Made by a program: the position numbers and the translations under genes
Origin: Terriglobales bacterium
Lineage (GTDB): Bacteria > Acidobacteriota > Terriglobia > Terriglobales > SCQP01
Direction of reading: 5' to 3'
Assembly: GCA_035573035.1 (NCBI GenBank)
Contig: DATNAC010000092.1
Coordinates: forward strand, 1 to 48,473
Length of the DNA: 48,473 nt
The notes under the pieces: generated by a model
The model's database searches: none
Told to the model about the DNA's origin: nothing
The model's input: only the letters and a program-made list of their open reading frames with translations
Shown: positions 14,984 to 44,083 of the stretch, in pieces
How positions within the stretch are numbered: position 1 is the stretch's first letter
How the letters are laid out: every line of letters begins with the position of its first letter

Positions 14984-14995
14984 CAGCACTCCGGG

Positions 14996-19554: not shown

Positions 19555-19804
19555 ACCCGCAGGAATGCAGGCCGCGGGCCACCTGGGGTTGCGGAAAATA
19601 GGGGATTTATACGCCGCGCGTCACGTGGCTTGGGTTTCCTGGCACGGGGCTGCGCGAGTTGCCCCATGCCATCGGCGCGGGCCGCACGACCTCGTTAACC
19701 CAGGGCGGGCCGCCCTCAGGCGTTCGCGGCCCGGCGCCCACTTGAACGCGGCGCCCGCGGCGCGACCCCGCGAGCGGAACATCCGGCTGCTTGCGCCCCT
19801 TGCC

Positions 19805-22800: not shown

Positions 22801-22912
22801 GCAGGGCGCTGGTCAAGGGGTTGGACGGCACGGGCGGGGCGGGAGCAGCCGACACCGCCAGCAGACCCAGGGACAGACCGCAAAACAGCAGAGCGTAGCG
22901 AGTTTTGGACAT
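19805..22912 (-). CDS. VPS10/sortilin-like BNR-repeat beta-propeller protein (paralog) with C-terminal helical extension
   Basis: In-frame ATG at 22912 in ORF 19805..23392. Signal peptide MSKTRYALLFCGLSLGLLAVSAAPA. BNR motifs: KSTDGGTSW, KTTDGGQTW, KSTDGGANW, RSDDAGATW, ISHDSGKT, VSQDAGANW and KTTDYGKTW. It aligns by eye with 14996..17743, for example AVAPSN...GTGD...YKSTD.G.W and VDPQNPDVVYVA versus VHPANPDVVYVA. Confidence 0.85.
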   Translation of the reverse strand: MSKTRYALLFCGLSLGLLAVSAAPAPPVPSNPLTSALHWRNVGPFTGGRVTTVAGVASEPNIFYMGTAGGGVWMTEDYGQNWHNISDKDFKTGSIGAMAVAPSNSKIIYVGTGDSAPRNTVLTGEGMYKSTDGGTSWSFIGLGDTHMINWILVDPQNPDVVYVASLGHLFAPNPDRGVFKTTDGGQTWKKILFVNNDTGAITMAMDQTNPSVVYAAMWQMSRTHWGFSSGGPGSGLYKSTDGGANWTNISHRPGLPTGIFGKVGVAVAPTDPKVVYALIQADYKGQAGGLFRSDDAGATWRLINNSMDITQRAFYYGRVYVDPKDPNTIYLPNVGVYISHDSGKTLLPLRPPHGDNHAFWINPNNTQIFIEGNDGGATVTLNGGKAFSSEDNQPTGQFYHANLDEEFPFNIYGAQQDRSSNEGPSATVGGAMPPVWNTVQGGEMSWVLPTPGKPWITYGSGYYSNEWRDDRRTGLVTNVAPWPAYKFGLQGSLIKYRFGWIHHPIVFAPGNSKELLFGANVLFESFDEGTHWKVISPDLTRDDKTKQARPGGPISADVTGEEMFDTISSIAVSPLTDNVIWVGSDDGLVHVSQDAGANWAQVRPPQLPEWSTVTCIEPSHTEAGTAYVSASRFDWDDFHPYVYKTTDYGKTWTALTNGLPADEYVESVRQDPNQANLMIAGTSKSVYFSLDQGQQWQPLRLNLPAVRVNDVEIQSQQHAVVLATFGRAFWVMDNLQYLEQLGTAHVSDDTAYLFKPQQAWLTAGGGGGGGGRGGAGAENRPAGVTVFFHLPSDYTAGTPVKLTFSTASGQEINTVTLPQRPAPGGRGAAPGGRGGARVARLHAGMNSYQWNLRYPNATEVKGIFNSGFAAAVPVGPEVVPGTYDVTLTVGQATQKQPFEVKLDPRLATSQAELQQRFDLLMRIHTALNQLDTNLNEAIDARAALEKSGSGGTALANLNRDIDDLVDLKIQSSEGALVYPGRLRAWLTSIASQVGLAMVPPTPSMVQVADDYIQQAAAGVTRLQADVAAAHSARQP

Positions 22913-23564
22913 GGCGGAGGGCCTCCCTCTCAAGCGCTTCCCGAACAACGGCTCAGAATAGCCGGAGTGTAGACGATTTTCGGGGAAAAATATAGTCCAT
23001 TGAGCGGCATTCATCCTTGTATAATCGCGGGCCTCACTTCCCCGGCGTTTTGATGGGCGCGACCCCCGCGACTGGTTCAGCAAGCGGGCGAGGCGGAGCC
23101 CGGCTTGGTCGAGGCGCAACTCGATCACCGGAGCGGCCTCGTCCAGCATTTCCATCGGGAGAGGCTGTTGGCGGGCGGCGCAGCTCTTCACGCCGGGCTC
23201 CAGGTCCACGGCAAGGGGCGCGGGCAACGTACCGTACACGGCCTTGACGGCGGCGGGCAAAACCCGGACGGGAAGGGGAAGGAGTCCTCTCACGCGGGGT
23301 TCCTCGGGTGGATCGGGAGCCATGCGGGGAAGCGTACATGCGCAGCCATCCCCCGCGGCATACCTGGAGCCCCGGCGGCGCGGCCGTCTCAATTCGGTTA
23401 CACGGATGAGGTATTCAACCTTCGGAGAGGACTCGCTGCAACCGTTCTGTAACCGGCGTGCCGCGCGGCGACGCGTGATCGAACTGTAACGCCGCCGCGC
23501 GATTGCCGCTGCCTACAATCGCTTCGTTCGCACTCACACCTTCGCGGGAAAAAAGGAGTACCGA

Positions 23565-26500: not shown

Positions 26501-27374
26501 GGAAGGCGTTTCGCACTACAACGCGCTGCAGTTCTCCGCCACCAAGAAACTCGGACATGGTTTGCAAATCAACGGCTCCTACACCTACTCCCATACCCTG
26601 GACGAGGGCAGCGGGCTGGGTCTGTTCTACAACGGCAACGATCCGATCAACCCGCGCAGCGCCTACGCCACGGCCGACTTCGACCGCACCCACGTGCTGG
26701 CGTTCAGCTACCTGTATCAACTGCCCACGCTGGGCGCGGCCAACTCCCTGCCCGGACGCCTGGTCAACGGCTGGGGCGTGAGCGGCATCGTCACCTTCCA
26801 GAGCGGGCTGCCGTATAGCGTATGGGACTACTCGGGCGGCGCCGCCTCGAACTACTACAGCTCGAACGACGTGATCACCAACCCGCTGATCCCGCTGGCG
26901 CCGGGGCAATCGGTGGCCTCGGCCCAGACGACCATCAACGGGCTGCCGGGGTTGAACCCATCCGCATTTGCGCCACCGCTGCTCGGGGCCGGCCAAGCCG
27001 GCGTCCCGCCCTGCGGACCCACGGCCGATGGCTCCAGCGCCAACTTCTGCGACACGGTGGAGAGCGGCTACGGAGCGGCGGGGCGGAACAACTTCCGCGG
27101 ACCATTCCAGTCGCGCGTCGACTTCTCGCTCCGCAAGGACTTCAACCTGAGCGAACGGCTGGGGCTGCGGGTCCAGGCCGACGCGCTCAACCTGTTCAAC
27201 ACGCCGAGCTTCGACGCCCCCAACGTCAACTCGGAGTTCAACGCCAGCTACAGCGACTTCCCGACCAACGGCAACGCGCCGGGGTTCACGCAGGGCAACT
27301 CCAGCTTCGGGCTGATCCAAGACACGATCGGCAGCCCGCGGTTCATCCAGCTGTCGCTGCATTTGTCGTTTTGA
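23565..27374 (+). CDS. TonB-dependent outer-membrane receptor with N-terminal carboxypeptidase-regulatory-like domain
   Basis: SD AAGGAG lies 7 nt upstream of the ATG. A signal peptide is followed by GNVSGTVFDSSGAVIAGARVALANAQTGLRESGVSNSKGEYSFFGLPIGTYSLTFSKAGF (CarboxypepD_reg pattern). The body is long and beta-strand rich, with C-terminal ...FIQLSLHLSF ending in the aromatic residue typical of OMP barrels. Confidence 0.9.
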   Translation: MKMQPCFLFRALGLGAVALWLFSGLPAAAQQSVGNVSGTVFDSSGAVIAGARVALANAQTGLRESGVSNSKGEYSFFGLPIGTYSLTFSKAGFQPEAHPAIVVSAAATTTLPVTLHPGSDAQQVTVTATPLLNKSDTTNGYVLPAAVINSLPLGTGSFTQLAVLSPGVSADLLSGSGSNAGLGNQAIWSNGQRDTSNSFSFNGVASENLFNGKSGSSVGEAAFLPNTGEHFLPGGQIETNTSVYDAIGEGLPTPPPETIDELKVDSSMYDASEGSSSGAHVAVVTKSGTNQYHGMGYWYFQNSALNAAPFFYNASPAIPRGQKVPELQRNVGGVTFGGPLVKNKLLFFASYQGVADHDQLNGTSKLNVPLALTNDRSAGALENDFGVSSISPVALALFQAKVNGQYLIPTPSVTSAATAKTLGYDAIITGRPEFSSNQANANLDYVVSANDRLAFKYYYQNDPTLSPFAVSALPGFAQQLQAGGQVASLENMQVLSPTMTWEQKAGFIRQIANANVQQQLTPGAVGMNLFGSTLFPGLTIDSFDPTLKKNISLGSSGNFTNGGVFQNQFSYTTELNWVRGDHRFEAGFTFTQAQLNVVNRSNEAAQVTVSSLASFLAGNVKSTQMLVGSTNRYYRAPTLGAFAQDSWQVSRNLSVIYGLRWDYDGPLSEEHGMLTNFDPSRYQYNATTDTVTNDGLVVAGNNPQYATAGVSDSTLTAHQYGFAPRLGVAWTPGANSNLVIRAGVGMYYDRGEFFTDFSPGAGYGISGPLGVTQELPFVEPFHSPGGSTLASPLGPTAPALTPGNPALFAATIPNLTATAGCPAGLLPNPLGCGANHAAPNTFDGGAVAAQIGGYDMNNKLPYSENWLFDIQWQPVNDLALTVGYTGNHGVHELLPIPINQPALASPTHPVNGQIYNYGFNPCPLADSNCSPYGPSTPNSPSAGLVTEPYSNYNSSFDGGNVDLRVPFIGYSPNLALWEAEGVSHYNALQFSATKKLGHGLQINGSYTYSHTLDEGSGLGLFYNGNDPINPRSAYATADFDRTHVLAFSYLYQLPTLGAANSLPGRLVNGWGVSGIVTFQSGLPYSVWDYSGGAASNYYSSNDVITNPLIPLAPGQSVASAQTTINGLPGLNPSAFAPPLLGAGQAGVPPCGPTADGSSANFCDTVESGYGAAGRNNFRGPFQSRVDFSLRKDFNLSERLGLRVQADALNLFNTPSFDAPNVNSEFNASYSDFPTNGNAPGFTQGNSSFGLIQDTIGSPRFIQLSLHLSF

Positions 27375-27394
27375 GGCGGGGCGAAACCGTCTGG

Positions 27395-27558
27395 CGCCTT
27401 GCGATCGCGGGGCGCCAGCACCTGACGCGCGACCCGCGCCGTTTTGATGGACACGGGCCCCAGCGCGGAAGGCCACGCGCCCGGCGTTTCCGGGCGCCTT
27501 CGGCTTATGCTCGCACCGGCAGGGGACCCCGGAGCCCCATGCCGGTGCCGCGCCCGCG
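27395..27558 (+). repeat. Intergenic structured repeat: degenerate mini-palindrome plus module 1
   Basis: GATCGCGGGGCGCC...GCGCGACCCGCGCC is followed by GTTTTGATGGACACGGGCCCCAGCGCGGAAGGCC...CACCGGCAGGGGACCCCGGAGCCCCATGCCGGTG. It matches 14792-14908 nearly base for base. Confidence 0.8.
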
Positions 27559-27628: not shown

Positions 27629-29575
27629 ATGTCGCGCAGGCAGATACTGAAGATCGGCGCCGGATTGAGCGTGGCGCTGTGCCTGGCGGCAGCCGGCGTG
27701 GCTTGGCGAGCACAGCAGGCGCTCCAACGGGCCGCAGTGCAACTGACGGCGGAAGGACAGCTGGGAGTCGAGGCGCGGTCCCTAACCCCGCTGCCTAATC
27801 CCGGATTCCAGAGCATCAGCGCGCCGGCGGTTTTTGCCAGCGCCGCCTACTTTGACGGCCGCTTCTACCTGATGGGGCCGGCCGGAGTCTTTGCTTGGAC
27901 GTCCGAAGGCGCTCTGGAACATGTGTATCGGCCGGGGCAGGATTTTCCCGCCAGCGCGGCGGGAGCGGCGACGGTGGGGACGCTGGCCGACGCCCGGCAG
28001 CCGGAATTGTTGTTCGGCACCGACCGGGAGGGCGTCATCGCCTTCGACGGCAAAAGCTTCCGCCAGATTCGACCCGCCGATTCGGCGGCGCGGCAGGTTA
28101 CGGCGCTGCTGGCGCTTCGAACCGGGCAGCTGCTGTGGGGTACCGCCAAACGCGGACTGCTGATCTATGACGGCCGCACGCTGCGTCCCTTCCACCCGAC
28201 GACCAGTTCCGTCTACGTCACCGCGCTGGCGGGCACCGACGGCGATTTGTGGGTGGGCACGCTGAATCACGGCCTACTGCACTGGCACGGCGGCGAGACG
28301 GAGGCGATCGGCGTGGCGCAGGGATTGCCCGACGCGCGCATCGAGGCGATCGCGATCGCCGGCGGCAGGGTGTATGCGGCCACGCCAGTGGGCGTCGCCG
28401 AGATGCGGCAGGGCCGGGTTAGCCGTATTCTGGCACCCGGGCGATTTGCCCGCGCCGTCCAAGTAGAGGCCGGCCATTTGCTGGTGGGGCAAGTTGAGGA
28501 GGGCGTGTTCGAAGCCCCCCTGGCCGGGCCCGGGCCCAGTGCGGATGCCCGGCGGCCCATCGCGGCACAGGCCGAGGCAGGCGTGGATCAGCCGTCCGGT
28601 ACCACCGCGGAGCAGTTCCTTTCCGCGGGTGGGCACACCTACGCCGTCGCCGAGGGGGGCCTGTTGGAGCGGGGGGCGGATGGAACATGGAACCCGGTGC
28701 TGAAGGCCGGGGGGGCGCTGCTGGGGGCGCGGCACATCTCGGCGCTGCTGCCAGCAAGCGACGGACGGCTCTGGGTAGGTTACTTCGACCGCGGCCTGGA
28801 CATTCTGCCGCCGGGCGGAGGCATGGCACACCACATCGAAGACGACCACGTTTTCTGCATCAATCGCATCGTGGAAAATCCCCGGCAGGGAGACGTCGTG
28901 GTGGCAACCGCCAACGGACTGGTGCTGTTCGACCGCGACGGACGGCAGCGGCAGGTGCTGGAGCGCGCGGCCGGATTGATCGCCGACCACGTCACCGACG
29001 TCGCCCTGTACCGGGGCGGGCTGGCGGCGGCAACCCCGGCGGGAATTACGTTTCTCGGGCCGAGCGGCACCGCCAGCGTGTATACCTTTCAAGGGCTGAT
29101 CAACGATCACGTGTACGCGCTGGGCGTACAGGGCGAGCAGATGCTGGCTGGAACGCTGGGCGGACTTTCTCTGCTCCAGGGCGAGAGCATCCGGCGCAAC
29201 ATCACCATGACCGACTCGGGCTTGCGGGACAATTGGATCACCAGCATGGTGCGGGCCGGCGACAGTTGGCTGATCGGCACGTACGGCAGCGGGGTCATGC
29301 GGATGGAAGCCGATGGGACCATTGCCGCCACCGAGGCCACCCGCGCCGGCACGATCATAAATTTCACGGCCATGCTCGCCGACGGAAAACTGGTACTCGC
29401 GGGCACGCTGGACCAGGGCTTGCTGGTGGGCGATGCGAGCGGGCAACACTGGAGGACGGTCACGGCGGGATTGCCCTCGCTCAACGTGACGGCGTTGGCG
29501 GCCGCCAATGGAACCATCTATGTCGGCACCGAGAGCGGCTTGGTGAAGATCGAGGAAAGCCGCCTTGAAGAGTAA
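27629..29575 (+). CDS. Exported or anchored beta-propeller protein with Reg_prop (two-component regulator propeller) repeats and Tat-like N-terminus
   Basis: The N-terminus MSRRQILKIGAGLSVALCLAAAGVA matches the S-R-R-x-F-L-K Tat consensus. Recurrent repeats: LLWGTAKRGLLIYDG, DLWVGTLNHGLLHWHG, RLWVGYFDRGLDIL, SWLIGTYGSGVMRM, LVLAGTLDQGLLVG and TIYVGTESGLVKI. Confidence 0.8.
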   Translation: MSRRQILKIGAGLSVALCLAAAGVAWRAQQALQRAAVQLTAEGQLGVEARSLTPLPNPGFQSISAPAVFASAAYFDGRFYLMGPAGVFAWTSEGALEHVYRPGQDFPASAAGAATVGTLADARQPELLFGTDREGVIAFDGKSFRQIRPADSAARQVTALLALRTGQLLWGTAKRGLLIYDGRTLRPFHPTTSSVYVTALAGTDGDLWVGTLNHGLLHWHGGETEAIGVAQGLPDARIEAIAIAGGRVYAATPVGVAEMRQGRVSRILAPGRFARAVQVEAGHLLVGQVEEGVFEAPLAGPGPSADARRPIAAQAEAGVDQPSGTTAEQFLSAGGHTYAVAEGGLLERGADGTWNPVLKAGGALLGARHISALLPASDGRLWVGYFDRGLDILPPGGGMAHHIEDDHVFCINRIVENPRQGDVVVATANGLVLFDRDGRQRQVLERAAGLIADHVTDVALYRGGLAAATPAGITFLGPSGTASVYTFQGLINDHVYALGVQGEQMLAGTLGGLSLLQGESIRRNITMTDSGLRDNWITSMVRAGDSWLIGTYGSGVMRMEADGTIAATEATRAGTIINFTAMLADGKLVLAGTLDQGLLVGDASGQHWRTVTAGLPSLNVTALAAANGTIYVGTESGLVKIEESRLEE

Positions 29576-31979
29576 GATCAGGCGCCGAACGTATCGGCTG
29601 TTGGCAGGTCTCCTGTCGCTCGGAATCGCGGCTTGGGGCGATACGGGAGTATTGATCCCGATGAACCGGAGATCACCCGATCCGGCCATCCTCTCCCTGC
29701 GCGAGATGAACGTGGATGTCCACGTCGACAACGGGGATGCGCGGGTGCGCATGCGCCAGATCTTCGCCAACCACACCGGCAGTCCCGAGGAGGGAAATTA
29801 TCAATTTGCACTGCCCACGGGCGCGCAGGTGTCCGATTTCGCGGTATGGGATGGGCCGGTGCGGATTCCGGCGGTAGTGCTGGCGCGCAAGAGAGCGAGC
29901 GAGGTCTACCAGGCGCTGAAAAGCCAGGCGATCGATCCCGGCCTGCTGCAACAAGGAGAACAGTCCGAGGCGGAGGCGCGGCGGAGCGGCATTTTCAGCG
30001 CCGACATCGCTCCGGTCCCGGCCTGGGGCACCAAACGGCTCGAAATCGAGTATCACCAGCCGGTGCCGGTGAGCGCGCGCAAGAGCTATTTCGTCCTGCC
30101 CTTAAAACCCAGCGCCTACGGCGTGCAGCACGTCGAACACTTGACCATTCATTTCGACCTGGACACGGCGGCGAGAGTGCAGGACTTCACCTACCAGGGG
30201 AAGGTGCTGCCGTTCCATATCGACACCCAGGACGCGCACGGGTTGCGCGGCACGGTGGACGTGCAGGACGTCAATCTAACCGAAGATTTTGCCGTGACCT
30301 GGAGTGTCGGTGAGCCGGACAACGCCCTGGAGATTGTGACCTACCGGAATCCGCATCCGGTGGTTCCGCCGGGAATCGAGGCGGCTCCGGCGACACCGCA
30401 AGAGGAAGAAGCACCGGGCTATGTGGAGGGTACGGCACAGTTTGGCGGCGCCGGCGCCTTGGCGGGCGGAACCGCCAGCCCGCGCACGGTAGTCATCCTG
30501 ATGGATACCTCGTTCTCCATGCAGTGGGACAAGCTGGAGCACAGTTATGCGGCGGCGGCCAAGATACTTGCGAGCTTGCGGCCCGGGGACCGCTTCAACC
30601 TGCTGCTGTTCAATACGGGAGTTGCCGCATTTCGGCCGGCGCCAGTGCCCGCGGATGCGTCCGCCACGATGGCCGCGATGAACTGGCTGCGCGCACAGCC
30701 GCTCGGGGGCGGCACCGACCTGCAGCAAGGGCTCGCGGCAGGGCTGCAACAGGCGTTGCGGCCGGGAACGGCGCTAGTGCTGCTGTCCGACGGGGGCGCC
30801 GATCGCGGCTTGGTCCAGAATGGCCACCTGGCGGCTTGGTACACGGCGAAGTGGAAGGCGCTGCCGGCGGGCCAGCGGCCGAAGACCGACATTTTTGCGG
30901 TCGGCGACGACGCGAACCTCCCGCTACTCCGCATGCTGGCCGGCAACGGCGGCGCCATGGAGCAGGTGCTTTCGAGCGAGCCGGTGGAGTATAAGCTCGC
31001 GGCCTTTCTCAACGAAATGGGACACGACGCCGTGCGGGATTTGGGTTTCGAGGCCTCGCCCGCCGGAGCGATTCACCTGGTCTACCCCCTGCAGGACTCG
31101 GTCTTCCCCGGTGGACAGGCGCGATGGGTGGGACAGTACGCGCGGCCGCAAAAGAGCGTGACCTTTCACGCGGGGGGACGCGAGGGGACGGAGACCATGG
31201 GCGCGAGCGCCAGCGCCGAGCTGCCCGAGCAGGCGCTCGAGCATGATCAACTGCCGCGTCTTTGGGCCGGGGCCCGAGTGCGGGCGCTGCTGGATCAGAT
31301 CGAGCGCAACGGTGAAACCGCTGCCGCCGTGAACGAGATCATCCGGCTGGCAAAGCAGTACAAGTTCGTGACGCCGTACTCTTCGTTTCTTGCGGCGCCG
31401 CGGGCGCTGCTGCGGCCGCGGGTCATTCAGCCGGGCGACCCGCTGCTGCGGGTGCACACCGATCCGGCGATCGTTTCGGTAATCGCCCTCTTTCCCTTCG
31501 GGCCCGAGAAGCCGCTGCGGTATCTACCGGCGGGCGACGACTCGGCCATCGCCACCGGGGACGCGCACACACGGGTGTGGGAAACGCGGTTTCTGGCGCC
31601 TCCGAACCTAAGAGATGGAGCCTACACCGTCCGGCTGATTCTGCGAGATCGCGATGGGCGGGTCTACCGGGAGTCCAAGAGCTTCGTTATCGACTCGACG
31701 CCGCCGGTGGTGCGATTGCGGCTGCCGCGGACGCGGTTCCGCGCCGGCGAGATCGTGCCGCTGCGCGTGAGCGCCTCGGCGTGGACCCGGACCATCACGG
31801 CCGAGATTGCCGGGTTGGCGCCCGTGGACCTGCGGTGGAATGACGACGCTCACGCGAGCACCGGGCAGCTTTTGATTCCGGCAGGTCTGCCGCCGGGCGA
31901 GTACGCGATCCAGGTCACCGCGGAGGATGCGGCGCATAACGTCGGGCGCGCGGAGGTGAAAATTGCCGTGGTGCCGTAA
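29565..31979 (+). CDS. Secreted VIT-domain plus von Willebrand factor A (vWA) protein with C-terminal Ig-like region
   Basis: TTG start at 29565 (GAGGA 8 nt upstream) overlaps the upstream gene by 11 nt. Signal peptide KSKIRRRTYRLLAGLLSLGIAAWG. VIT-like LREMNVDVHVDNGDARVRMRQIFANHTG...YQFALPTGAQVSDFAVW. vWA domain with MIDAS VVILMDTSFSM and later VLLSDGGA. The C-terminal beta-rich part includes YTVRLILRDRDGRVY and YAIQVTAEDAAHNVG. Confidence 0.85.
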   Translation: MKSKIRRRTYRLLAGLLSLGIAAWGDTGVLIPMNRRSPDPAILSLREMNVDVHVDNGDARVRMRQIFANHTGSPEEGNYQFALPTGAQVSDFAVWDGPVRIPAVVLARKRASEVYQALKSQAIDPGLLQQGEQSEAEARRSGIFSADIAPVPAWGTKRLEIEYHQPVPVSARKSYFVLPLKPSAYGVQHVEHLTIHFDLDTAARVQDFTYQGKVLPFHIDTQDAHGLRGTVDVQDVNLTEDFAVTWSVGEPDNALEIVTYRNPHPVVPPGIEAAPATPQEEEAPGYVEGTAQFGGAGALAGGTASPRTVVILMDTSFSMQWDKLEHSYAAAAKILASLRPGDRFNLLLFNTGVAAFRPAPVPADASATMAAMNWLRAQPLGGGTDLQQGLAAGLQQALRPGTALVLLSDGGADRGLVQNGHLAAWYTAKWKALPAGQRPKTDIFAVGDDANLPLLRMLAGNGGAMEQVLSSEPVEYKLAAFLNEMGHDAVRDLGFEASPAGAIHLVYPLQDSVFPGGQARWVGQYARPQKSVTFHAGGREGTETMGASASAELPEQALEHDQLPRLWAGARVRALLDQIERNGETAAAVNEIIRLAKQYKFVTPYSSFLAAPRALLRPRVIQPGDPLLRVHTDPAIVSVIALFPFGPEKPLRYLPAGDDSAIATGDAHTRVWETRFLAPPNLRDGAYTVRLILRDRDGRVYRESKSFVIDSTPPVVRLRLPRTRFRAGEIVPLRVSASAWTRTITAEIAGLAPVDLRWNDDAHASTGQLLIPAGLPPGEYAIQVTAEDAAHNVGRAEVKIAVVP

Positions 31980-31983
31980 GCGG

Positions 31984-34900
31984 ATGCTGGGACGCGTGGG
32001 CCTGCTGCTGGGCTGCGCGCTGGCCGCGGCCAGCCTGCTGGCCCAAACAAACCTCTCCGCCTGGCTCGGCAACGCGGTCGCCGGGTCCGCGATCGAGGCG
32101 GCGCTTTACCGAGCCATGCCGCTGCCGGGGGGCATCTTTCTTTTTCGCCGGCCGCCGGGGGAGGCGCAGGCCGCGCTGACGCACATGGCGGGGGCCGCCG
32201 CCAGCGACCCGGCACTGTGGCAACTGCGCGCGCTGGAGGACGAGCACGCTCTCGACTTTGACGCCGCCGAGCGCGACTGGAAGACCTGGACGGAGAAGGC
32301 GCCGGACCCGGGCGCCGCGGAGCTCGACCTGGCCGGCTTCTATGCCCGCCGCCTGCGCCCGCAGCCAGAACTAGAGGCTCTGGCCGCCGTGGGCCGCTCC
32401 CCGGCCCGGGCGGCGGAACGCTGGACCGCGCCGGAACGACAGCGCGCTTGGCAGGCATGGTCGCAGTCGCTCGAGGTCGTGCGCCAATTCCATTTGCCAC
32501 GCTCCGCCGCGGCTTCGGTATACCAAGCGTGGGAGCAGCGCTATCCCCAGGCACCGGGCGTCTATGCGCAAGAGTTCGCCTACCGGCTGGCGGGGGGCGA
32601 GGACCGCGCCGGCGAGGACGTGCTGGCCCGCTACCGCCGCGCGTTTCCCCGGGACGCGGCTACCGCGCTGCGGTGGCAGGCTCAACTGGCGGCGCGCCGG
32701 GGATCGCCGCGGGATGGATTGGCGCTATACGACCGGAATTTTCAGCCGCTATGGCCGCAACCACTGATCACGGCCTGGTTCCAACTGCTCACCCAGGCGG
32801 GAGAGGTGCGCCGCACCGGCGATGAACTGCGGGCAAAACTCGCGACGGATCCCCGGGATTTGTTGGACACAGCGCGGCTGTTTTGGATCGAACAGCAGCA
32901 GGGACAGACCGAGGCGGCACGTGCCGTGCTGGTGAACTATCGCACCCGACGCGAGGCCGCGGGAGGCGCCTGGAGCGGCACCGAACTCGACACCCTGGCC
33001 CAACTCGCGGACCGGGCAGGAGACATCCCCGAGGCCGCGCGTTACTACTATGCGCTGGCCACGCCGCCGGCGGGAACGCCGGACCCGGCGGAGCCGGACG
33101 CGGAAGAGAAGGGGTTGGCCGGTTTGGCGCGCCTACTGCTGAGCGCGCCGGATCAGCCACTGCGCGCCGGCGCCGCAAACCTCTCGATGTACCGCGATAT
33201 CGCCACTCTGGATCGCGGTCCGGGATACCTGAACGGCATTCTTTCGCTGCTGTTGAATTCCGACTCTCCGCGGCGGGAATTGGCGCAGGAGGAGCGGCTG
33301 GCAACGCCGTATTACCATCGCGCCAAAGCCGCCGAATTGATTGCTCGAGTCGACCAACGCTATCCCCAGGCGAAGGATCGCCCGGAACTACATGCCAGCC
33401 TGATTGTGGCGTACCAGGACTACGGCGACGACGCGGACGTGGTGCGCGAGGCCAAGGCATTCCTGGCGAACTATCCGGAAGCGCCGCAGCGCGTCGAGGT
33501 GGCGCTCGAGGCCGCCAACGCCGATGCGCGGATGGGGCAGACCGACCAGGAGTTTGGACTATATCGGGACCTGCTCCAGGAGTTGGCGGCGCGGGCTGGA
33601 GGCATGCCGCTGAGCGGCGGCGGCGCGGCGGGCGCTCAGTTCCCCGATAGCGAGGCGGCACCGGGGCCGCCACTGTACGCGCAAGTGCTCGACCAGTACC
33701 TATCCCGGCTGGTGGCCCTGGGACGCATCCCCGACGCGCTCGCGGTACTGCGCGGCGAGTTGGACCGGAACCCACGGGATCCGGGTCTGTATGAACGGCT
33801 GGCGCAGTTCCTGCAACAGAACGCCCTGGATGGCCAGATCGAAGCGGTCTATCAGCGCGCCCTGCAACAGTTCCCGGACGCAACCTGGTATGCGAAGCTG
33901 GCGCGTTTTTATCTGCGCCGGAACCGCCGGGCCGACTATGCCGCCCTGACCCGCAAAGTCACCGGCATCTTTTCGGGTACCGGGTTGGAACAGTACCTGG
34001 AACAAGCGCCCGCTCCGGACCGAAGCCTGGCGCTTGAGGTGAGTCTCTACGCGAACCGGCGCTTCCCGCACGATCTGCGTTTCGTCGAGGACCTCATCGC
34101 CGACTACACCGGCGAACACCGGGATGACGCCGCCATGCAATTGCTCTGGGCGCACTGGAGCGAATCCCCGGACCTGCGCCGGCAGTTGTTCGAGAAACTG
34201 AGCTCCCGCGGGCGCTTGGATCCGGTCCTGGCCACCTTGCGCCAACAGTCTCCCCAGATCGGCAGGGGCGAGTGGAAGGCGCTGGCGCAGGCGAATCCGG
34301 CGGCGGAGCGGTTCTGGGTGGAAGCGTGCCTGTGGCAGAGCCATTACGAACAGGCCGTGGATGCCGCAGGCGCGCTCTCCAGCGCCTTTCCGGCCGAGAC
34401 GGAGATCGGCGACGATGCGGCGGCGTTGTACCGTTCCTTCGCCTACTACCAGGGGGAGGACACCGCCAAAGCGGTCGGCGTCGAGAACCGGTTGCTAAGC
34501 GTGCATCCAGGCGACGTGCAAACGCTGGCGCATATCGGCGACATCTATGCGGATCGCGGAGGGATGAGCGAGGCCGCCCCGTACTGGCGGCGCATGGGGG
34601 AGGTTCACCCGGGCGACTCCGACGGTTATCTGCAATCCGCCACCGTGTACTGGGACTACTTTGAGTTCCCTCAGGCCCTCGGGGAGATCGAGCGTGCGCG
34701 GCAGGCGCTGCGGCAGCCCACGCTGTACGGCTACGAAGCCGGCGCGATCGACGAGAGCAGCGGCGACACCGCGGCGGCAATCCACGAGTACGCGGCTAGC
34801 GCGCTGCGGGATGGAGAAACCTCGCCCAGCCGCGGGCGGCTCCTGACGCTGGCCAAGCGCGCCCCGCTGCAGCCCCTGATCGAGGCCGCGACCTCGCGAT

Positions 34901-37900
34901 GGCTGCAGGGCGCCGCGCCCACGCCGGTGGAGATCTCGCTCCGGGCCGGCATCCTGGACGCCGAGCACCGCCGGGATCAGCTAACGCGGGAACTGGTGGC
35001 GGCGGCCGGCCGCACGGCGTCCTTCGAGTCGCTCGACGCGATTCGAGCGGCCGCGCAAAGGCAGTCGCTGCCGGAGGCGGTTCAGGCATCGCTCGAGCGG
35101 CAGATCGCATTGACCACCGACCCGGTGCGAAGCCTGCAACTGCGTTACCAATTGGTTGATTTTTATGTCAGCCGCCATGATGCCGCCGCGGCGGCGGCAT
35201 CCGTCGACGCGGTCGACCGCGACCACCCGAGGATTCTCGGCGTAGTGCGATTCACGGTGGATTACGACTGGAATCACCGGCGCCGGCCGCGGGCGGTCAC
35301 GGTCCTGTTGGGTGCGGCGCGGACCGCCTACCCGGCGCTGCGGCGCGATTTCCTGCTGGAAGCCGCGGCCAAGCTCACCGACATGGGCGAGTACGCCCGA
35401 TCCCGAAGTCTGCTGGAAGCCCTGTTGGCGGCCAATCCCGAGGCACGGGTGGAAACGGCCCTCGCCGCGAACTACGGCCGTTCCGGCGATGAACGCGGGC
35501 TGATGACGTTTTATCAGCAGCGGTTGCGCGCCGCGGAAAACTCGACTCTGACCGGCGCCGCGAAGCGGGACCGGATCGCGGAGGTGCGGCGCGGCATGAT
35601 TGCGGCGGCGAAGGCGCTGGGGCAACCCGAGGTGGCGCTCGACCAGTACGTCGAGCTGATCAACGCGTACCCCGACGACGACGGGCTGACGCAGGAGGCG
35701 GCGCTGTTCGCGCTGGGCAGCGGCCAAGGCGACCGGCTTTTGGGCGTGTACGCGAAGGCGGAACAGGCGTCGCCGCGGGATCCACACCCGAGCATTGTGC
35801 TGGCGCGGCTGGCCACCACGGCCGAAAATCTTCCCACGGCAATTGACGCCTACGGAAAAGCCATCGCTTTGCGTCCTGAGCGGCAGGACCTGCTGGCCGC
35901 GCGGGCGGGGCTAGAGGAGCGGCTGCAACGTTTCGATGGCGCGGCGACCGACTACCAGAGGCTATACGCGCTCAGCTACCACGATCCACAGTGGATGCAG
36001 AAGCTGGCCGAGGACCGGGCGCGCCAAGGGCGCACCGCCGACGCGGCGCAGGCGCTGCAAACCGCATGGATCGACGGACGTGCGCCGAAGGCGGCGAACG
36101 ATTTTCAAGTGGCCGCGGAACTGGACTCGTGGAACATGGTCGATCTGGCGCGACAGTACGTCCAGCAGGGGGTGCGGCTTGCGGGTTCGGACCTGCTGGT
36201 GGACAGCGCCGACCAGAGCGGAGCGGCGACCTATGGACGCATCCTGGCGCGGCAGCGTCAGGCGGACACGGCGGTCGCCACGCTGCTGGCGGCGCGTTCG
36301 GCGGCGGGAGCGGGCGGGGAGAACACGGCCCCCGCACCGGCAAATGGAAATGCCTCCAACCAACCTTGGCTGGAGCTTCGCCGGCGCGAGCGCGCCGGGG
36401 AGGCCCAAGCGGGTTTTGCGGGAGCGCTGCGCGCGGTCGGCGGTGCCGTCAAGGCCTACTACACGCCGGAAGAAAGCGCGCGGTTCGCGGCGTGGTTGCA
36501 GACCCGCAGCCGCGGCGCCCGCGCGAACGATTTGCGGGAGATTTGGCTGCCCCTGGCGGCTTCGGCCGGCATGGCCGAGAGTGAGGCGAACCTGCGCTGG
36601 CAGCTGGCCGCACTGACTGCGCCGGCGGAGACGCCCGCCCAACTGGATGGGTGGGCCCGCCTAGAGGAACGGCGGGGACAACTCAACGGCGTGGAGGCAA
36701 GATTGGCGGGCCTCGCCGGCAAGGGCGGCAGCCAGGCGTATACCGCGGCGCTGTGGCGGCAGGCCGCCGAGGTCGCCCGGCGCAGTGGCGATACCGGCGC
36801 AGAACTAGGCGCGCTGCAAGCCCTGGACGGGGAGCATATGCTGGGCAACGACCAGGCGCGCTATTTCCAGCTGCTGCTGACGCAGCGGCCGCAGGAACTG
36901 GTGCGGCACGCGGCACAGGATCCCGCGGCGCGATTTCTGGTGATGTACGGCAGCGATACGCAAGCCTTCGCGGCGATTGCGGCGCGTGCCGCGAATCAGC
37001 CGCCGGCATGGTTGCGGGCTTACACCGCGCTGACCGGCCTTTACCGCGATACTCCCACACCCCAGGTGACGCAAGCGTTTGTCGAAGCGCTCGACGCGGG
37101 CGCCGCGATCGGCGACCGCATGGAGCATCCCGTGGACCGGGACCAGCAGCTAGCCGGTTCGGTGTGGTTCTATTACGGATCGCGTTACGGCGAGTACCTT
37201 GACCGGCGAAAGAATCCTCAAGCCGGCCAATATTTGGTATCGGGGCTGGAGGCGGCCCCCGGCAGTCCCGCGGCCTATATCGCACTCGCAGGATACGAGA
37301 CGCAAGCCGGCCGTTATCCGGCTGCGCTCACCGAGTATCGGCACGCATTGGAAATCGCACCGGACCAGCCCGAGGCGCTGAACAGCATGGCTGTGGTCGA
37401 GACGAAGAGTGGGGACACCGCCGCAGCCGTCGCCACCTGGAAGTCGGCGGTTAGCCTGTTGGCGAAGCAAGCGGATGCGCATACGGTGCCGTCCTCATTT
37501 TGGAGCGGCACCATCCAGGTGCTCCGCGACGCGAGCGCCGCGGGCCAGCTGCGCGCGATCAGCCCGCCCATCGATGCGATGCTGCGCCATTACCTGGCCC
37601 GCAACGGGAACTACCGTGCCGAGGCGTTGCTGGAAGCCGGCTACCGCGCCCATGGCGACTCGATGACCTGGGCGCTGCAAACCGTGGCGGGGCTGGATGC
37701 GGAAGCCGCCCTGTTGCGCGGAATGCACAACTCCTTGGGTTCGCTTGGCAACGGGCAGGCAAGTCTGCTGCTAGGCCGGCTGGTGGAGATCGACCGGCGC
37801 ACCGCGCAGCGGAGTGGAGGGCCAGGGTACTCCAACCTGGCGTCCGACCAAGCGGCGTGGGCGGCGGCGCTGCTGGACGAGGGCGAGACCAAAGCGGCGC

Positions 37901-39099
37901 GCAGGGTGCTGGCGCAGGTTCCGGCCGCGCAGCGATGGACGCCGTTGTGGCTGCCGGCGGAACTCCGCCTGGCACAGAGCGATCACGCGCTGCCCAAGCT
38001 GGTGGCGGAGTGGCGGGCCGCCGGACCGGAGGCGCCGCCTCCCGGCAGCTTGCTGGAACTCGCCGCCAACCTGGCAGAACCTGGCCAAGACACCGTGCTG
38101 ACGTATGCCTATGAACGCATGCTCGCGATGCGCGATTTCGCCGCCCCGAACTTCCTGGGATTGGCGGCGGTGCGGCTGAATGCCGGGGATGTGGCCGGAG
38201 CCATGCAGCTTCTACGGCGCATGCTGCTGATCAGCGGCGACGTTTATAGCGATCTGGATTCGGCGGCGGCGTTGCTGGAGGAGCGCCATCACCCGGCCGA
38301 GGCCCTGCAATTCCTGCGGCCGCTGGCCGAATTCACGCCCTGGAACGCGGAGTACAAGGTGCGGCTGGCGGCAGCGCTGTTGGCCGTGCAGCCCTCGCCA
38401 AGCGGCGCGCCGGCCCTATTACAGGCGGTCGCCGCCGACCCGAGCGCCGAATACCGGCAGCGCACCGCGGCGGCCGAGGCGCTCAAGGGCCGCGCGCAAA
38501 CGGGAGTCCTCCAGGGTGAACTGGCGCTGCTGGCGCAGACGAGTTGCCCGACTCCCGAACAGGCATCGCAGCCCATGGTTGTCGCAGCCCGCGTAGCGGC
38601 GGCCTCCTGCGCAGCCGGGGACGCCGTACGCGAGCCCCTGCTGCGGGCGGCGGTGGCGCTCCGTCCCGATGACACTCGGATTCGGCTGCAATACGTGTGG
38701 GCCGCGTTCGGATCCGGAAAAGCACGAGAGGCGCTGCTCGCGGCGGAGCCGCTGCTCGCGGCCTCTCCCTTTGGGGACCGTTCCGCGTACGGCTACACCG
38801 GCGAGGGGAACGGTGTCGCCGCGATGGACCCGGCGGATGCCGGCCGACTGTACTTGCTCGTTGCCCAAGCTCTGGACAAGATGGCCGAGGATGCCATCGC
38901 GCTGCGGGAGGCCGACGCCGGGATCCGGCTGGCTGGGGATTCCGCCTCGGCGCCGGCGCTCCGAAGCGAGGAGAGCCGGCTTAAGGATCGCGTTGCCCGG
39001 CAGCAGCAAAACGCGGCACGGGCTCCGCAAATTGGCGATGCGATCGAGCAGCAACGCGTCGTCCGGCCACGGCTGACCGCAAGCGAGGCGCCGCGATGA
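31984..39099 (+). CDS. Giant (about 2370 aa) secreted TPR/HAT-like helical-repeat protein
   Basis: The single uninterrupted ORF 31963..39099 could alternatively start at TTG 31963. ATG at 31984 gives the signal peptide MLGRVGLLLGCALAAASLLAQ. The whole length is made of Ala/Leu/Arg-rich about 34-residue helical hairpin repeats, for example YRHALEIAPDQPEALNSMAVVETKSGDTAAAVATWKSAVSL and AIDAYGKAIALRPERQDLLAARAGL. No catalytic motif recognised. Confidence 0.8.
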   Translation: MLGRVGLLLGCALAAASLLAQTNLSAWLGNAVAGSAIEAALYRAMPLPGGIFLFRRPPGEAQAALTHMAGAAASDPALWQLRALEDEHALDFDAAERDWKTWTEKAPDPGAAELDLAGFYARRLRPQPELEALAAVGRSPARAAERWTAPERQRAWQAWSQSLEVVRQFHLPRSAAASVYQAWEQRYPQAPGVYAQEFAYRLAGGEDRAGEDVLARYRRAFPRDAATALRWQAQLAARRGSPRDGLALYDRNFQPLWPQPLITAWFQLLTQAGEVRRTGDELRAKLATDPRDLLDTARLFWIEQQQGQTEAARAVLVNYRTRREAAGGAWSGTELDTLAQLADRAGDIPEAARYYYALATPPAGTPDPAEPDAEEKGLAGLARLLLSAPDQPLRAGAANLSMYRDIATLDRGPGYLNGILSLLLNSDSPRRELAQEERLATPYYHRAKAAELIARVDQRYPQAKDRPELHASLIVAYQDYGDDADVVREAKAFLANYPEAPQRVEVALEAANADARMGQTDQEFGLYRDLLQELAARAGGMPLSGGGAAGAQFPDSEAAPGPPLYAQVLDQYLSRLVALGRIPDALAVLRGELDRNPRDPGLYERLAQFLQQNALDGQIEAVYQRALQQFPDATWYAKLARFYLRRNRRADYAALTRKVTGIFSGTGLEQYLEQAPAPDRSLALEVSLYANRRFPHDLRFVEDLIADYTGEHRDDAAMQLLWAHWSESPDLRRQLFEKLSSRGRLDPVLATLRQQSPQIGRGEWKALAQANPAAERFWVEACLWQSHYEQAVDAAGALSSAFPAETEIGDDAAALYRSFAYYQGEDTAKAVGVENRLLSVHPGDVQTLAHIGDIYADRGGMSEAAPYWRRMGEVHPGDSDGYLQSATVYWDYFEFPQALGEIERARQALRQPTLYGYEAGAIDESSGDTAAAIHEYAASALRDGETSPSRGRLLTLAKRAPLQPLIEAATSRWLQGAAPTPVEISLRAGILDAEHRRDQLTRELVAAAGRTASFESLDAIRAAAQRQSLPEAVQASLERQIALTTDPVRSLQLRYQLVDFYVSRHDAAAAAASVDAVDRDHPRILGVVRFTVDYDWNHRRRPRAVTVLLGAARTAYPALRRDFLLEAAAKLTDMGEYARSRSLLEALLAANPEARVETALAANYGRSGDERGLMTFYQQRLRAAENSTLTGAAKRDRIAEVRRGMIAAAKALGQPEVALDQYVELINAYPDDDGLTQEAALFALGSGQGDRLLGVYAKAEQASPRDPHPSIVLARLATTAENLPTAIDAYGKAIALRPERQDLLAARAGLEERLQRFDGAATDYQRLYALSYHDPQWMQKLAEDRARQGRTADAAQALQTAWIDGRAPKAANDFQVAAELDSWNMVDLARQYVQQGVRLAGSDLLVDSADQSGAATYGRILARQRQADTAVATLLAARSAAGAGGENTAPAPANGNASNQPWLELRRRERAGEAQAGFAGALRAVGGAVKAYYTPEESARFAAWLQTRSRGARANDLREIWLPLAASAGMAESEANLRWQLAALTAPAETPAQLDGWARLEERRGQLNGVEARLAGLAGKGGSQAYTAALWRQAAEVARRSGDTGAELGALQALDGEHMLGNDQARYFQLLLTQRPQELVRHAAQDPAARFLVMYGSDTQAFAAIAARAANQPPAWLRAYTALTGLYRDTPTPQVTQAFVEALDAGAAIGDRMEHPVDRDQQLAGSVWFYYGSRYGEYLDRRKNPQAGQYLVSGLEAAPGSPAAYIALAGYETQAGRYPAALTEYRHALEIAPDQPEALNSMAVVETKSGDTAAAVATWKSAVSLLAKQADAHTVPSSFWSGTIQVLRDASAAGQLRAISPPIDAMLRHYLARNGNYRAEALLEAGYRAHGDSMTWALQTVAGLDAEAALLRGMHNSLGSLGNGQASLLLGRLVEIDRRTAQRSGGPGYSNLASDQAAWAAALLDEGETKAARRVLAQVPAAQRWTPLWLPAELRLAQSDHALPKLVAEWRAAGPEAPPPGSLLELAANLAEPGQDTVLTYAYERMLAMRDFAAPNFLGLAAVRLNAGDVAGAMQLLRRMLLISGDVYSDLDSAAALLEERHHPAEALQFLRPLAEFTPWNAEYKVRLAAALLAVQPSPSGAPALLQAVAADPSAEYRQRTAAAEALKGRAQTGVLQGELALLAQTSCPTPEQASQPMVVAARVAAASCAAGDAVREPLLRAAVALRPDDTRIRLQYVWAAFGSGKAREALLAAEPLLAASPFGDRSAYGYTGEGNGVAAMDPADAGRLYLLVAQALDKMAEDAIALREADAGIRLAGDSASAPALRSEESRLKDRVARQQQNAARAPQIGDAIEQQRVVRPRLTASEAPR

Positions 39100-40820
39100 G
39101 GGTCCTCCCGCGTTTCGTGCTCCCGACATTGCTTGGCGGCGCGGCTTTATGGGCGTTGGTAGCGGTCCAAGCCGCCAAGCCTCCAGGCCTCGCGTCGCTC
39201 TTCCCCGCGGGAGCTCCGATCTACGTCGAAGCCAAAGATTTCCACGGGCTGCTGCGTCAATGGGACAACTCGCCCGAAAAGCGCACTTGGCTGAGTAGCG
39301 ATAGCTATGCGGACTTCAGCCGGTCGCGCCTGCTCTCGCGGCTTGCGGAGGCCCAGGGCCAGTTCTCGGCGGCGGCGGGCATTCCGGCGGATGTGAACCT
39401 GCTGGAGACGGTGGCCGGCAAAGAAAGCGCCCTGGCAATTTACGACGTCGGCAGCCTCTCTTTCGTGTATCTCACGCGCATGGACCAACCCTCCGCGGAG
39501 ACCACGCCGCTCTGGCTGATTCGCGGCCGCTTCGAACAACGCAACGAGGCGGGGAGCGTCTTCTTCGTTCGACAGGACCCGGAGTCGCGTCGCGTGGCGG
39601 CGTTTGCGGTTCAAGACGGCTGGCTGATTCTGGGCACACGCGAAGATCTGGTGGCCGGCGTGCTTGACCGGCTGCACCATGAAGCAACCCAAGACCTGGC
39701 GGGCGAGGCGTGGTTCGCCGGCGCCGTCCAACAAGCCGCGGAACCGAGCGGCGATTTGCGGATGCTGTTGAACCTCGGCAAGCTCGTTGCGATGCGGCCG
39801 TTCGACAGTTATTGGGTACAGCAGAACGATGGGGAACTCAAGCAGTACAGCGCCGCGGTCAGCGACCTGTATTGCGAGGCGCCGGCATGGCGTGAGCAGC
39901 GGACGATGCTGCGCGAGCCGCAGCCGAATCCGCGGCCGCCGGGCACGGATGTGTCTTCGCTCGCAGCACTGGCGCCGGCGGGGACGACATTCTGGTCCGC
40001 GCGGGCCGCACCAAGTACACTGTCCCTCCTGACAATGCTGCGGGACGATCTGCTGGATCCACAGCCCAGTTCTACATCCGGCATGGCATACGCCCCACCG
40101 CTGGCGACCGCCGAAAGCGCGGGCGCCTCCTCGGATCTCGAAACCCGGATTGATCGGTCACCCGCGCTCGCCACGCAGTCTGATCCATGGCGGACGCTGC
40201 GGGAGATGCTCGTTGCCGCGCAACCGTCGGGCGTCCTGTCCGTTTATGAGGCCGGCCCCGCGCCGACCGGCATCTTCATTCCCATTCATCATGCCGTGGT
40301 CGTCGCGTCCGCGCGGGACTGGAACATGGTGGAGGTGCAGGAGGCGTTGACGGCCGCGTTGCATTCCCGCCTCGCCGTGAGTCAACTGGGGATTGGTTGG
40401 GTGACGCGCTCCGGGCCGGAGGGCGGCTTCGAAGCTCTGGATGGCCAAATCACCTTGTTGGCGGCGGCGCGGAATGACAAGCTGTTTCTGGCCAATGATG
40501 CCGCCATGCTCTCGTCGCTACTGGCCAACGCCGGCAAGACGGCGACGGAGGACGCCGGCGTCACCTACGCGGCCGTCTTCAATCACAGTGACGACGAGCA
40601 GGCGACTTTCCGCAATCTTTTCGGCCTACTGGACCGCGCCGGGAGCCGCGGCAGCGCGGACGGAGCCGGGGACGTCCAGCGTGGCGAACCTCCGGCGTTC
40701 TTCTCAGGAAACCTCGCCAGTTTGAGCCGCGTCTTCTCGGCAGTATCCCAGGTCAGAATGGAGGAGCGCGACCAGGGAGCCAAGGTTTCGGAGTCGGTAC
40801 GCTACCTCTGGAAGCGGTGA
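39096..40820 (+). CDS. Secreted hypothetical protein (DUF3352-like, tentative)
   Basis: ATGA overlap with the giant TPR gene and GAGG 8 nt upstream. Signal peptide MRVLPRFVLPTLLGGAALWALVAVQA. The family assignment is only a recollection of the typical DUF3352 N-terminal layout (FPAGAPIYVEAKDF...) and is unverified. Confidence 0.7.
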   Translation: MRVLPRFVLPTLLGGAALWALVAVQAAKPPGLASLFPAGAPIYVEAKDFHGLLRQWDNSPEKRTWLSSDSYADFSRSRLLSRLAEAQGQFSAAAGIPADVNLLETVAGKESALAIYDVGSLSFVYLTRMDQPSAETTPLWLIRGRFEQRNEAGSVFFVRQDPESRRVAAFAVQDGWLILGTREDLVAGVLDRLHHEATQDLAGEAWFAGAVQQAAEPSGDLRMLLNLGKLVAMRPFDSYWVQQNDGELKQYSAAVSDLYCEAPAWREQRTMLREPQPNPRPPGTDVSSLAALAPAGTTFWSARAAPSTLSLLTMLRDDLLDPQPSSTSGMAYAPPLATAESAGASSDLETRIDRSPALATQSDPWRTLREMLVAAQPSGVLSVYEAGPAPTGIFIPIHHAVVVASARDWNMVEVQEALTAALHSRLAVSQLGIGWVTRSGPEGGFEALDGQITLLAAARNDKLFLANDAAMLSSLLANAGKTATEDAGVTYAAVFNHSDDEQATFRNLFGLLDRAGSRGSADGAGDVQRGEPPAFFSGNLASLSRVFSAVSQVRMEERDQGAKVSESVRYLWKR

Positions 40821-40849: not shown

Positions 40850-41005
40850 GAGGACGGCCGCTGCTTGCCGGGGGCGCGAAGCTCGCACTGCGAGCTTCGC
40901 CCCTCCGGAATTACGACCACCCCACCGCGCAGAACGCGGTGGGGGCCCGGTTCGTGGCCCTTCGCGCCGACTTTGCCCACAGGGCAAATGGCGCGACCCC
41001 GCGAA
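40850..41005 (+). repeat. Intergenic structured repeat: module 2 (three consecutive hairpins)
   Basis: Three hairpins: GGGGCGCGAAGCTCGcactgCGAGCTTCGCCCC; CCCCACCGCGcagaaCGCGGTGGGG (10-bp perfect stem); GCGCCgacTTTGCCCacaGGGCAAAtGGCGC. The element ends GACCCCGCGA. It is the reverse complement of 41592-41738. Confidence 0.85.

Positions 41006-41051: not shown

Positions 41052-44083
<3,032 letters not shown>

Follow-up and report, generated by a model that had tools for sequence, protein, structure and literature searches.

We analysed a contig of 48,473 nucleotides from a Terriglobales bacterium (DATNAC010000092.1, assembly GCA_035573035.1, forward strand; the window hereafter), and in it a cluster of four consecutive genes for exported proteins, g1 to g4. 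All four are long open reading frames (ORFs) on the plus strand, and a preliminary description of the window had placed them at exactly these coordinates. The gene g1 (27629–29575, +) encodes a Reg_prop propeller protein of 648 amino acids, and g2 (29565–31979, +) an exported VIT-vWA protein of 804 amino acids that resembles the heavy chains of inter-alpha-trypsin inhibitor (ITIH). These are followed by g3 (31963–39099, +), which encodes a giant tetratricopeptide repeat (TPR) protein of 2,378 amino acids, or 2,371 if read from the ATG at 31984, and by g4 (39096–40820, +), which encodes an exported alpha/beta protein of 574 amino acids from an unnamed family. Long spurious ORFs are common in the window because its G+C content is high (63–70%). 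The four genes are no such artefacts of base composition but genuine, with full-length homologues in the hundreds for each.

The four genes form one operon. As read from the sequence, g1 and g2 overlap by 11 nucleotides, with the TTG start of g2 at 29565, the TAA stop of g1 at 29573–29575 and a GAGGA box 5' of the TTG. At the next junction, the described 17-nucleotide overlap is obtained when g3 starts at TTG 31963, which has a GGAGG 6 nucleotides to its 5' side; with the alternative start, ATG 31984, the two genes are separated by 4 nucleotides (31980–31983) and not by the 5 given earlier. The genes g3 and g4 share the ATGA at 39096–39099. Since the called genes of relatives repeat both the 17-nucleotide (g2/g3) and the 4-nucleotide (g3/g4) overlap, the overlapping TTG start of g3 is the conserved one. 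Hairpins lie on both sides of the unit. Just 3' of the g4 stop, a GC-rich hairpin of 18 pairs (40868–40908, +; −57.4 kcal/mol, z −2.74) is probably where the transcription unit ends in this genome; it is only terminator-like, since it has no U-tract. The second hairpin, followed by a T-run, is found at 27392–27417, 3' of an upstream TonB-dependent receptor-like gene. A scan of the window for sigma-70 promoters returned zero sites, and terminator-like sites were rarer than in shuffled sequence. Export-type N-termini, each a basic stretch followed by a hydrophobic helix of about 20 residues, were visible on inspection in all four proteins, in agreement with the preliminary description.

Synteny beyond close relatives had been set beforehand as a test of the cluster. 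Conservation was assessed by pattern scans over one genome per GTDB species, followed by tblastn of the window proteins against the loci recovered. Relatives were found in 145 species-level genomes for g4, 435 for g1 and at least 569 for g2. Nearly all listed records are labelled as Acidobacteriota, and a few metagenome-assembled genomes (MAGs) carry the labels of other phyla. The carriers include Terracidiphilus, Acidobacteriaceae, Acidisarcina, Granulicella, Sulfotelmatobacter, Acidoferrales, Bryobacterales and Solibacteraceae, and among them are the cultured Bryobacterales bacterium F-183, Granulicella rosea DSM 18704 and Granulicella sp. S156. The order g1-g2-g3-g4 was kept in essentially every examined locus of Terriglobales, Acidoferrales and Bryobacterales: g2 directly followed g1 in 73/73 loci and g3 came next in 72/72, and by tblastn g2, g3 and g4 were contiguous in all but one (L037) of the approximately 80 Terriglobales and Acidoferrales loci that reached far enough upstream. 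A divergent branch was identified as Bryobacterales through an alignment led by the g2 protein of locus L090; in the Bryobacterales loci, g1 was in place in 72/72, g3 in 64/64 and g4 in 61/61, with g4 identity down to about 30%. Two alignments (A3 and A4) had diverged too far to serve in pattern scans, and a single-protein scan with P0390 for relatives outside the class returned nothing. No evidence of the cluster outside Acidobacteriota was found among the best 80 loci listed per search, a listing that does not by itself show absence elsewhere. Because gene order is kept class-wide, the cluster is not confined to close relatives; the four genes are co-inherited across class Terriglobia, and the unit is, judging from these comparisons, ancestral to that class. 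In one Acidoferrales MAG (MFD05521.bin.1.74), two whole copies of the cluster were found (L050, CAVYTB010000001.1; L051, CAVYTB010000005.1), which may reflect a genuine duplication, heterogeneity of strains or an artefact of binning.

Neither flank of the unit is conserved among relatives, and the turnover is complete. On the 5' side of g1 a different neighbour was found at every locus read, such as a chemotaxis cluster, a kinase/phosphatase pair or an inositol-phosphate synthase gene. In the window this position is held by the TonB-dependent receptor-like gene (23565–27374), which lies on the same strand and ends 254 nucleotides before g1. This proximity, together with the similarity of g1 to the glycan sensors of Bacteroides polysaccharide utilisation loci, could be taken to mean that the cluster is a glycan-capture or uptake accessory to this outer-membrane protein, and the preliminary description had suggested that the two work together. 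However, the receptor-like gene adjoins the cluster in 0/61 relatives, and any paralogue of it was found within 10 kb in only 3/61, at 24–26% identity. Since the receptor adjoins in none of the relatives and the 5' neighbours vary, the partnership is unsupported. The hairpin and T-run 3' of the receptor gene and the missing signalling output domain of g1 also speak against a receptor accessory, an explanation that synteny has largely refuted and that we regard as barely credible. On the 3' side, a GNAT acetyltransferase gene and, 33 nucleotides later, a catalase-peroxidase (KatG-like) gene directly follow the cluster (41052–44083). Both were considered as downstream members and rejected, with no tblastn match in any related locus. 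Two further 3' flanks were noted. In L091, the closest long relative of the window, g4 is followed on the opposite strand by a defence-like pair of nSTAND1-TPR and SIR2/TIR proteins (11913–16795). In L090, a Bryobacterales-like metagenome contig, a gas-vesicle cluster (GvpA, GvpK, GvpG, GvpL/F and AAA_5; L090:14959–19349) lies just 3' of a six-gene form of the cluster.

This six-gene form is the usual one. Two further genes, g5 and g6, come after g4 in 67 of the 80 loci with enough downstream sequence (for example L002:11722–14449, L178:20379–21797 and L090:11629–14634), and in Bryobacterales g5 was found in the same arrangement in 55/61 loci. The g5 protein has about 290 amino acids and a penicillin-binding transpeptidase domain (PF00905), with weak matches to models of penicillin-binding protein (PBP) 2, and it keeps the SxxK, SxN and KTG catalytic motifs (GSLVKPF, SCN and KTGT). 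The g6 protein carries a SpoIID/LytB domain (TIGR02669 at 155 bits). The start of g5 typically overlaps the stop of g4 by 13 nucleotides. In the window, in its nearest relatives L087 and L091 and in about a dozen other loci, the unit stops at g4, and no homologue of g5 or g6 was found anywhere in the 48 kb of the window. The reverse truncation was seen in an Acidobacteriaceae MAG, where g4, g5 and g6 overlap one another with no g1–g3 upstream (L037:9944–13439); thus, g4 travels with either half. Since g5 and g6 follow g4 in 67/80 loci and in most Bryobacterales, the comparison of loci indicates that the ancestral unit is one of six genes, with g4 as its hinge.

The g1 protein consists of a short basic N-terminus, one hydrophobic helix (residues ~8–26) and then about 600 residues of Reg_prop beta-propeller repeats. 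The Reg_prop assignment had been made from the letters alone and is borne out by a Pfam match above threshold (PF07494, 39.2 bits against a cut-off of 20.4). More than 2,800 homologues at 57–68% identity were found, and the matches in the PDB (3v9f, 3va6 and 4a2l) are periplasmic sensor propellers of Bacteroides hybrid two-component systems. Pfam gave no match in g1 to Y_Y_Y, kinase, receiver or DNA-binding domains, and a second transmembrane segment is missing as well; the cytoplasmic N-terminus has only 5–8 residues and the chain ends after the propeller region, leaving no cytoplasmic output domain. For lack of that second segment and of kinase, receiver and DNA-binding domains, g1 is unable to signal alone. 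Its N-terminal export or anchor segment (27629–27709, +) reads MSRRQILK and then a hydrophobic helix. The near-consensus twin-arginine motif, SRRQILK, is therefore present in the window protein as described, but the twin-arginine translocation (Tat) route does not follow from it: even a relaxed pattern of RR-x-hydrophobic-hydrophobic was found in only 13 of 120 orthologues, some of which have no RR at all, and Tat export was rejected as a conserved feature. What is kept across the 120 is the basic stretch, the helix of about 20 residues and a W-R-x-x-R-A-L directly after the helix. As the latter is conserved and SRRQILK is not, the N-terminus more likely acts as an uncleaved signal-anchor than as a Tat signal.

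The g3 protein was expected to be a TPR giant of about 2,370 residues, and Pfam returned only TPR-class matches, for the window protein as for 19 orthologues; in the same 20 proteins no beta-barrel porin domain was found. An N-terminal hydrophobic helix and a short beta-hairpin precede a continuous TPR-like solenoid of helical hairpins. In an AlphaFold2 (AF2) model of residues 8–1190 (1,183 residues; predicted local distance difference test score, pLDDT, 77), the helix hairpins run unbroken after the one small beta-hairpin. Foldseek searches with this model led to giant eukaryotic TPR scaffolds, namely IFT-A/TTC21B, Ski3 and Ctr9. Nearly all loci keep g3 as one uninterrupted frame of about 7.4 kb. 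Two invariant elements stand out. The first, at residues ~396–436 (window ~33150–33270; NLSMYRDIATLDRGPGYLNGILSLLLNS), has low confidence in the AF2 model, as is typical of a partner-binding loop, for which it is a candidate. The second is the C-terminal ...QDRVVRPRL (window 39030–39096), also a candidate partner-binding element. Some sources name g3 orthologues 'cellulose synthase operon protein C', which is generic TPR naming.

In g2, both expected domains were recovered by Pfam: VIT (PF08487) at residues 45–163 with 64.7 bits against a cut-off of 26.5, and vWA at residues ~305–480 (VWA families). The metal-ion-dependent adhesion site (MIDAS) described as intact is so: the DxSxS motif (D314-T-S316-F-S318; 30504–30518, +) is completed by T384 and D409, and these five residues are invariant in 78/78 orthologues. 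A DUF58 match within the vWA domain remained below threshold (20.2 bits against 23.4). The described Ig-like tail exists as a tail of about 180 residues, but the Ig-like label comes from sub-threshold matches (Big_13, 21.7 bits; DUF4625, 18.4 bits; cut-off 27). The likeness to ITIH, put forward earlier as an analogy, is real homology that continues past the vWA domain into the FVTPxTS segment; it covers residues 300–624, with phmmer alignments reaching residue 610 for ITIH4 and 624 for ITIH1. By column counts, the most conserved segment of g2 is residues 600–646 (31362–31502, +; KFVTPYSSFLAAPRALLRPRVIQPGDPLLRVHTDPAIVSVIALFPFG), which includes an invariant P-G-D-P (residues 623–626) followed by the tail. 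The near-invariant pattern over the orthologues is KFVTPYTSFLA.PR.LLRPRVIRPGDPVLRV, and the window protein reads FVTPYSSF...PGDP. In position, the G-D-P resembles the Asp-Pro at which ITI heavy chains are processed, and it may be a site of cleavage or transfer. The best NCBIfam match, TIGR03788 (marine proteobacterial sortase target, VIT-vWA), scored 116.4 bits, far under its cut-off of 551.65, and weak matches were seen to sortase, PEP-CTERM and XrtN target families. The C-terminus of g2 (...AEVKIAVVP) has neither an LPXTG nor a PEP-CTERM end.

ITIH heavy chains bind, and are esterified to, glycosaminoglycans. Their homology to g2 thus brings up an extracellular-matrix, exopolysaccharide or surface-adhesion assembly, in which g2 would bind or join a secreted polysaccharide, g1 would bind glycan and g3 would act like BcsC, PelB, PgaA or AlgK. 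The surface anchoring of the bacterial VIT-vWA relatives named in the weak NCBIfam matches is consistent with such an assembly, as are the similarity of g1 to glycan sensors and the cellulose synthase labels on some g3 orthologues, generic though these are. However, no glycosyltransferase, polysaccharide synthase, Wza/Wzc, exosortase or sortase gene was found among the conserved neighbours, which are peptidoglycan enzymes instead; the 20 scanned g3 proteins differ from the polysaccharide-export scaffolds in having no C-terminal porin barrel; and g2 has no sorting end of either kind. We consider this explanation unlikely. The preliminary description had also suggested a large periplasmic or surface assembly with adhesion. 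The co-inheritance of the exported unit is in line with an assembly; the six-gene form, with the PBP-like and SpoIID/LytB genes at its end, points towards wall or envelope rather than adhesion in general.

The g4 protein had been called DUF3352-like. This label is unsupported, since neither the window protein nor four orthologues gave any Pfam-A or NCBIfam match even at E≤10; a PDB sequence search with the family profile was likewise blank, DUF3352 was absent from the literature found, and the affinity was rejected. The family comprises 954 clusters at 50% identity. In the AF2 model of g4 (pLDDT 79.7, predicted template-modelling score 0.74), the top and sole significant Foldseek neighbour was TP0453 of Treponema pallidum (E 1.2e-5, probability 1.0, template-modelling (TM) score to target 0.45–0.51 over ~260 columns), and g4 is accordingly described as an alpha/beta protein with a predicted TP0453-like fold. 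The function of TP0453 is itself only partly known; there is reportedly work on its membrane-inserting amphipathic helices. An internal duplication in g4 was rejected, because hhalign matched its N-terminal and C-terminal halves with a probability of only 1.5%, which is not significant. The N-terminus of the window protein (MRVLPRFVLPTLLGGAALWALVAVQAAKPP) contains no Cys and no lipobox, and some orthologues have an LLLGC-like sequence there. The public gene call for g4 (P0001, 475 amino acids) is about 100 codons too short and misses 39096–39392; ATG 39096 is favoured over this call because orthologues of about 575 amino acids conserve residues 35–100.

What was observed is the structure of the genes, their domains and folds, N-termini of the export type, synteny throughout the class and the association with peptidoglycan enzyme genes. 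From this we infer a membrane-anchored, TPR-scaffolded periplasmic complex that acts on peptidoglycan or on the coupling of wall and membrane. The physical complex, peptidoglycan as its substrate and any physiological role are steps of this inference, as is every functional step below, and we propose it tentatively, with a confidence that stops a little short of even. The complex would probably be anchored in the inner membrane. The TPR solenoid of g3, some 2,400 residues long, would be the platform. From g1 would come two beta-propellers of glycan-sensor type, tethered to the membrane by the N-terminal helix, while g2 would bind a partner or polymer through its intact MIDAS. With its TP0453-like fold, g4 may contact membrane or lipid and would couple the assembly to the small PBP-type transpeptidase or carboxypeptidase (g5) and the SpoIID/LytB lytic enzyme (g6), both of which appear to be translationally coupled to g4 in most genomes. 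Such an assembly might position the remodelling of the cell wall or regulate it, or it might hold wall and membranes together. A precedent for such a role exists in Escherichia coli, where the TPR proteins NlpI, LpoA and CpoB scaffold or regulate peptidoglycan enzymes.

Several points weigh against this proposal. The evidence for cooperation among the members is genomic throughout, and none of the recognised peptidoglycan-binding modules (LysM, SPOR, OmpA-like, PG_binding) is found among the domains of g1–g4. As the window and 12/80 related loci have no g5 and g6 beside g4, the enzyme link is dispensable in cis, and it could reflect an ancestral neighbourhood rather than function. The likeness of g4 to TP0453 is moderate, with a TM score of ~0.5, 9% identity and less than half of g4 covered. 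The model of g3 covers its N-terminal half only, and the export signals were judged by eye. The genomic nature of this evidence leaves room for another explanation, namely that four (or six) functionally unrelated genes for exported proteins have stayed adjacent through vertical inheritance alone. This we hold to be highly improbable, since gene order and overlaps persist down to a g4 identity of about 30% and despite the complete turnover of both flanks, and since the overlaps of 17, 4 and 13 nucleotides are conserved and of the kind that couples translation.

A more specific form of the periplasmic complex can be drawn by analogy with the heavy chains. In it, g2 would be processed at the invariant Gly-Asp-Pro and covalently transferred to peptidoglycan or an envelope polysaccharide, with g3 as platform or ruler, g1 as glycan holder, and g5 and g6 preparing or catalysing the attachment. 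We offer this as a speculation that is probably wrong. If true, it would reveal a new means by which proteins are attached to the wall, and it would be a bacterial counterpart, and possible evolutionary source, of the coupling of heavy chains to glycan.

No characterised pathway was found for the cluster, as the preliminary description had surmised: profile libraries and literature searches on the domain combination place it nowhere, and nothing was found in the literature on the cluster itself. PADLOC gave no match to known anti-phage defence for g1–g4, and a defence system was rejected on this ground. Source names are 'hypothetical', 'ligand-binding sensor domain-containing protein' or the generic 'TPR repeat protein'. 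The parts are of familiar domain types; neither the g4 family nor the cluster has a name in profile libraries. The Terriglobia count among the commonest bacteria in soil, and the biology of their envelope has hardly been studied. The operon measures 13–15 kb and stays intact class-wide. Its products are a periplasmic TPR protein that ranks with the largest known, a bacterial MIDAS protein that resembles ITIH and, in most cases, two enzymes of peptidoglycan, which makes it a strong candidate for an envelope machine specific to this lineage. Understanding it could show how the wall is built or remodelled in these bacteria, which grow slowly and tolerate stress, and what bacterial VIT-vWA proteins do.

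The remainder of the window carries genes of other kinds. Two large Sortilin/BNR-repeat proteins are encoded around a multicopper oxidase/cupredoxin gene (14996–17800, 17908–19554 and 19805–23392, all on the minus strand), divergent from the TonB-dependent receptor-like gene; a plus-strand ORF in this region (19304–22972) had no domain match and is probably spurious. Further genes encode a PIN-domain protein (198–944), a MacB/FtsX-type permease (5165–7639, −), a Ser/Thr kinase (10702–12207, −) and a GGDEF diguanylate cyclase (12373–14796). No tRNA or Rfam family was found in the whole window.

Finally, the cluster was compared with known systems. The Bat operon of Bacteroides and Leptospira, like other MoxR-DUF58-vWA-TPR clusters, also places an exported vWA protein beside an exported TPR protein, and a MoxR-independent relative of such clusters, serving tolerance of oxidative or envelope stress, might be supposed from this and from the catalase-peroxidase gene about 0.8 kb 3' of g4. 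The preliminary description had noted that a MoxR ATPase and a DUF58 partner are missing, and we found neither anywhere in the window. No MoxR-class (AAA_3) gene was found among the window ORFs scanned or adjoining the cluster in L002–L006 and L087–L091, the AAA_5/AAA_3 gene of L090 lying about 6.8 kb downstream on the opposite strand; there was likewise no separate DUF58 gene in the window, and neither partner was seen in the flanks of relatives. Because both are absent, g1–g4 is not a Bat operon. Moreover, Bat vWA proteins have no VIT domain, which g2 has; Bat TPR proteins are small, g3 being about ten times larger; the propeller, TP0453-like, PBP-like and SpoIID genes are extra; and KatG is no conserved neighbour. 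A stress-tolerance relative of Bat is thus very unlikely.

The TolQR-coupled vWA 'force transducers' (PMC12204202) are alike in having a membrane-tethered periplasmic vWA protein beside an uncharacterised TPR gene. They are found in other phyla, tolQ/tolR-like motor genes are missing within and near the present cluster, and the N-terminus of g2 has no His-containing helix of the SHLS type; identity with them was rejected, as they are a different system. The polysaccharide-export scaffolds BcsC, PelB, PgaA and AlgK are set apart by the porin barrel and by synthase genes, of which the conserved flanks have none. With NlpI, LpoA and CpoB/Tol-Pal with its TolB propeller, the resemblance would be one of concept, in that genes for periplasmic TPR proteins, beta-propellers and peptidoglycan enzymes come together; TPR homology is only generic, the cluster has no TolQRA-type motor and no Pal, and its scale of about 2,400 residues and its composition are unlike theirs.

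At the level of single proteins, g1 shares its Reg_prop repeats with the hybrid two-component sensors of Bacteroides (BT4663-type; 4a2l, 3v9f, 3va6), from which it differs in having no Y_Y_Y match. TP0453 (3k8g–3k8j) is, like g4, an envelope protein, but g4 is twice as long and in the window lacks a lipobox Cys. The g2 protein differs from ITIH1–4 (6fpy, 9c4f) in being a bacterial periplasmic protein encoded in an operon, with no bikunin or chondroitin context and no ITI_HC_C match in its tail, where only the sub-threshold Big_13 and DUF4625 matches are seen. It is like them in its VIT domain, in its vWA domain with a complete MIDAS and in its FVTPxTS segment, and the invariant G-D-P some 20 residues after that segment, with the tail of about 180 residues beyond it, may recall the D|PHFII processing site and C-terminal propeptide of the heavy chains.

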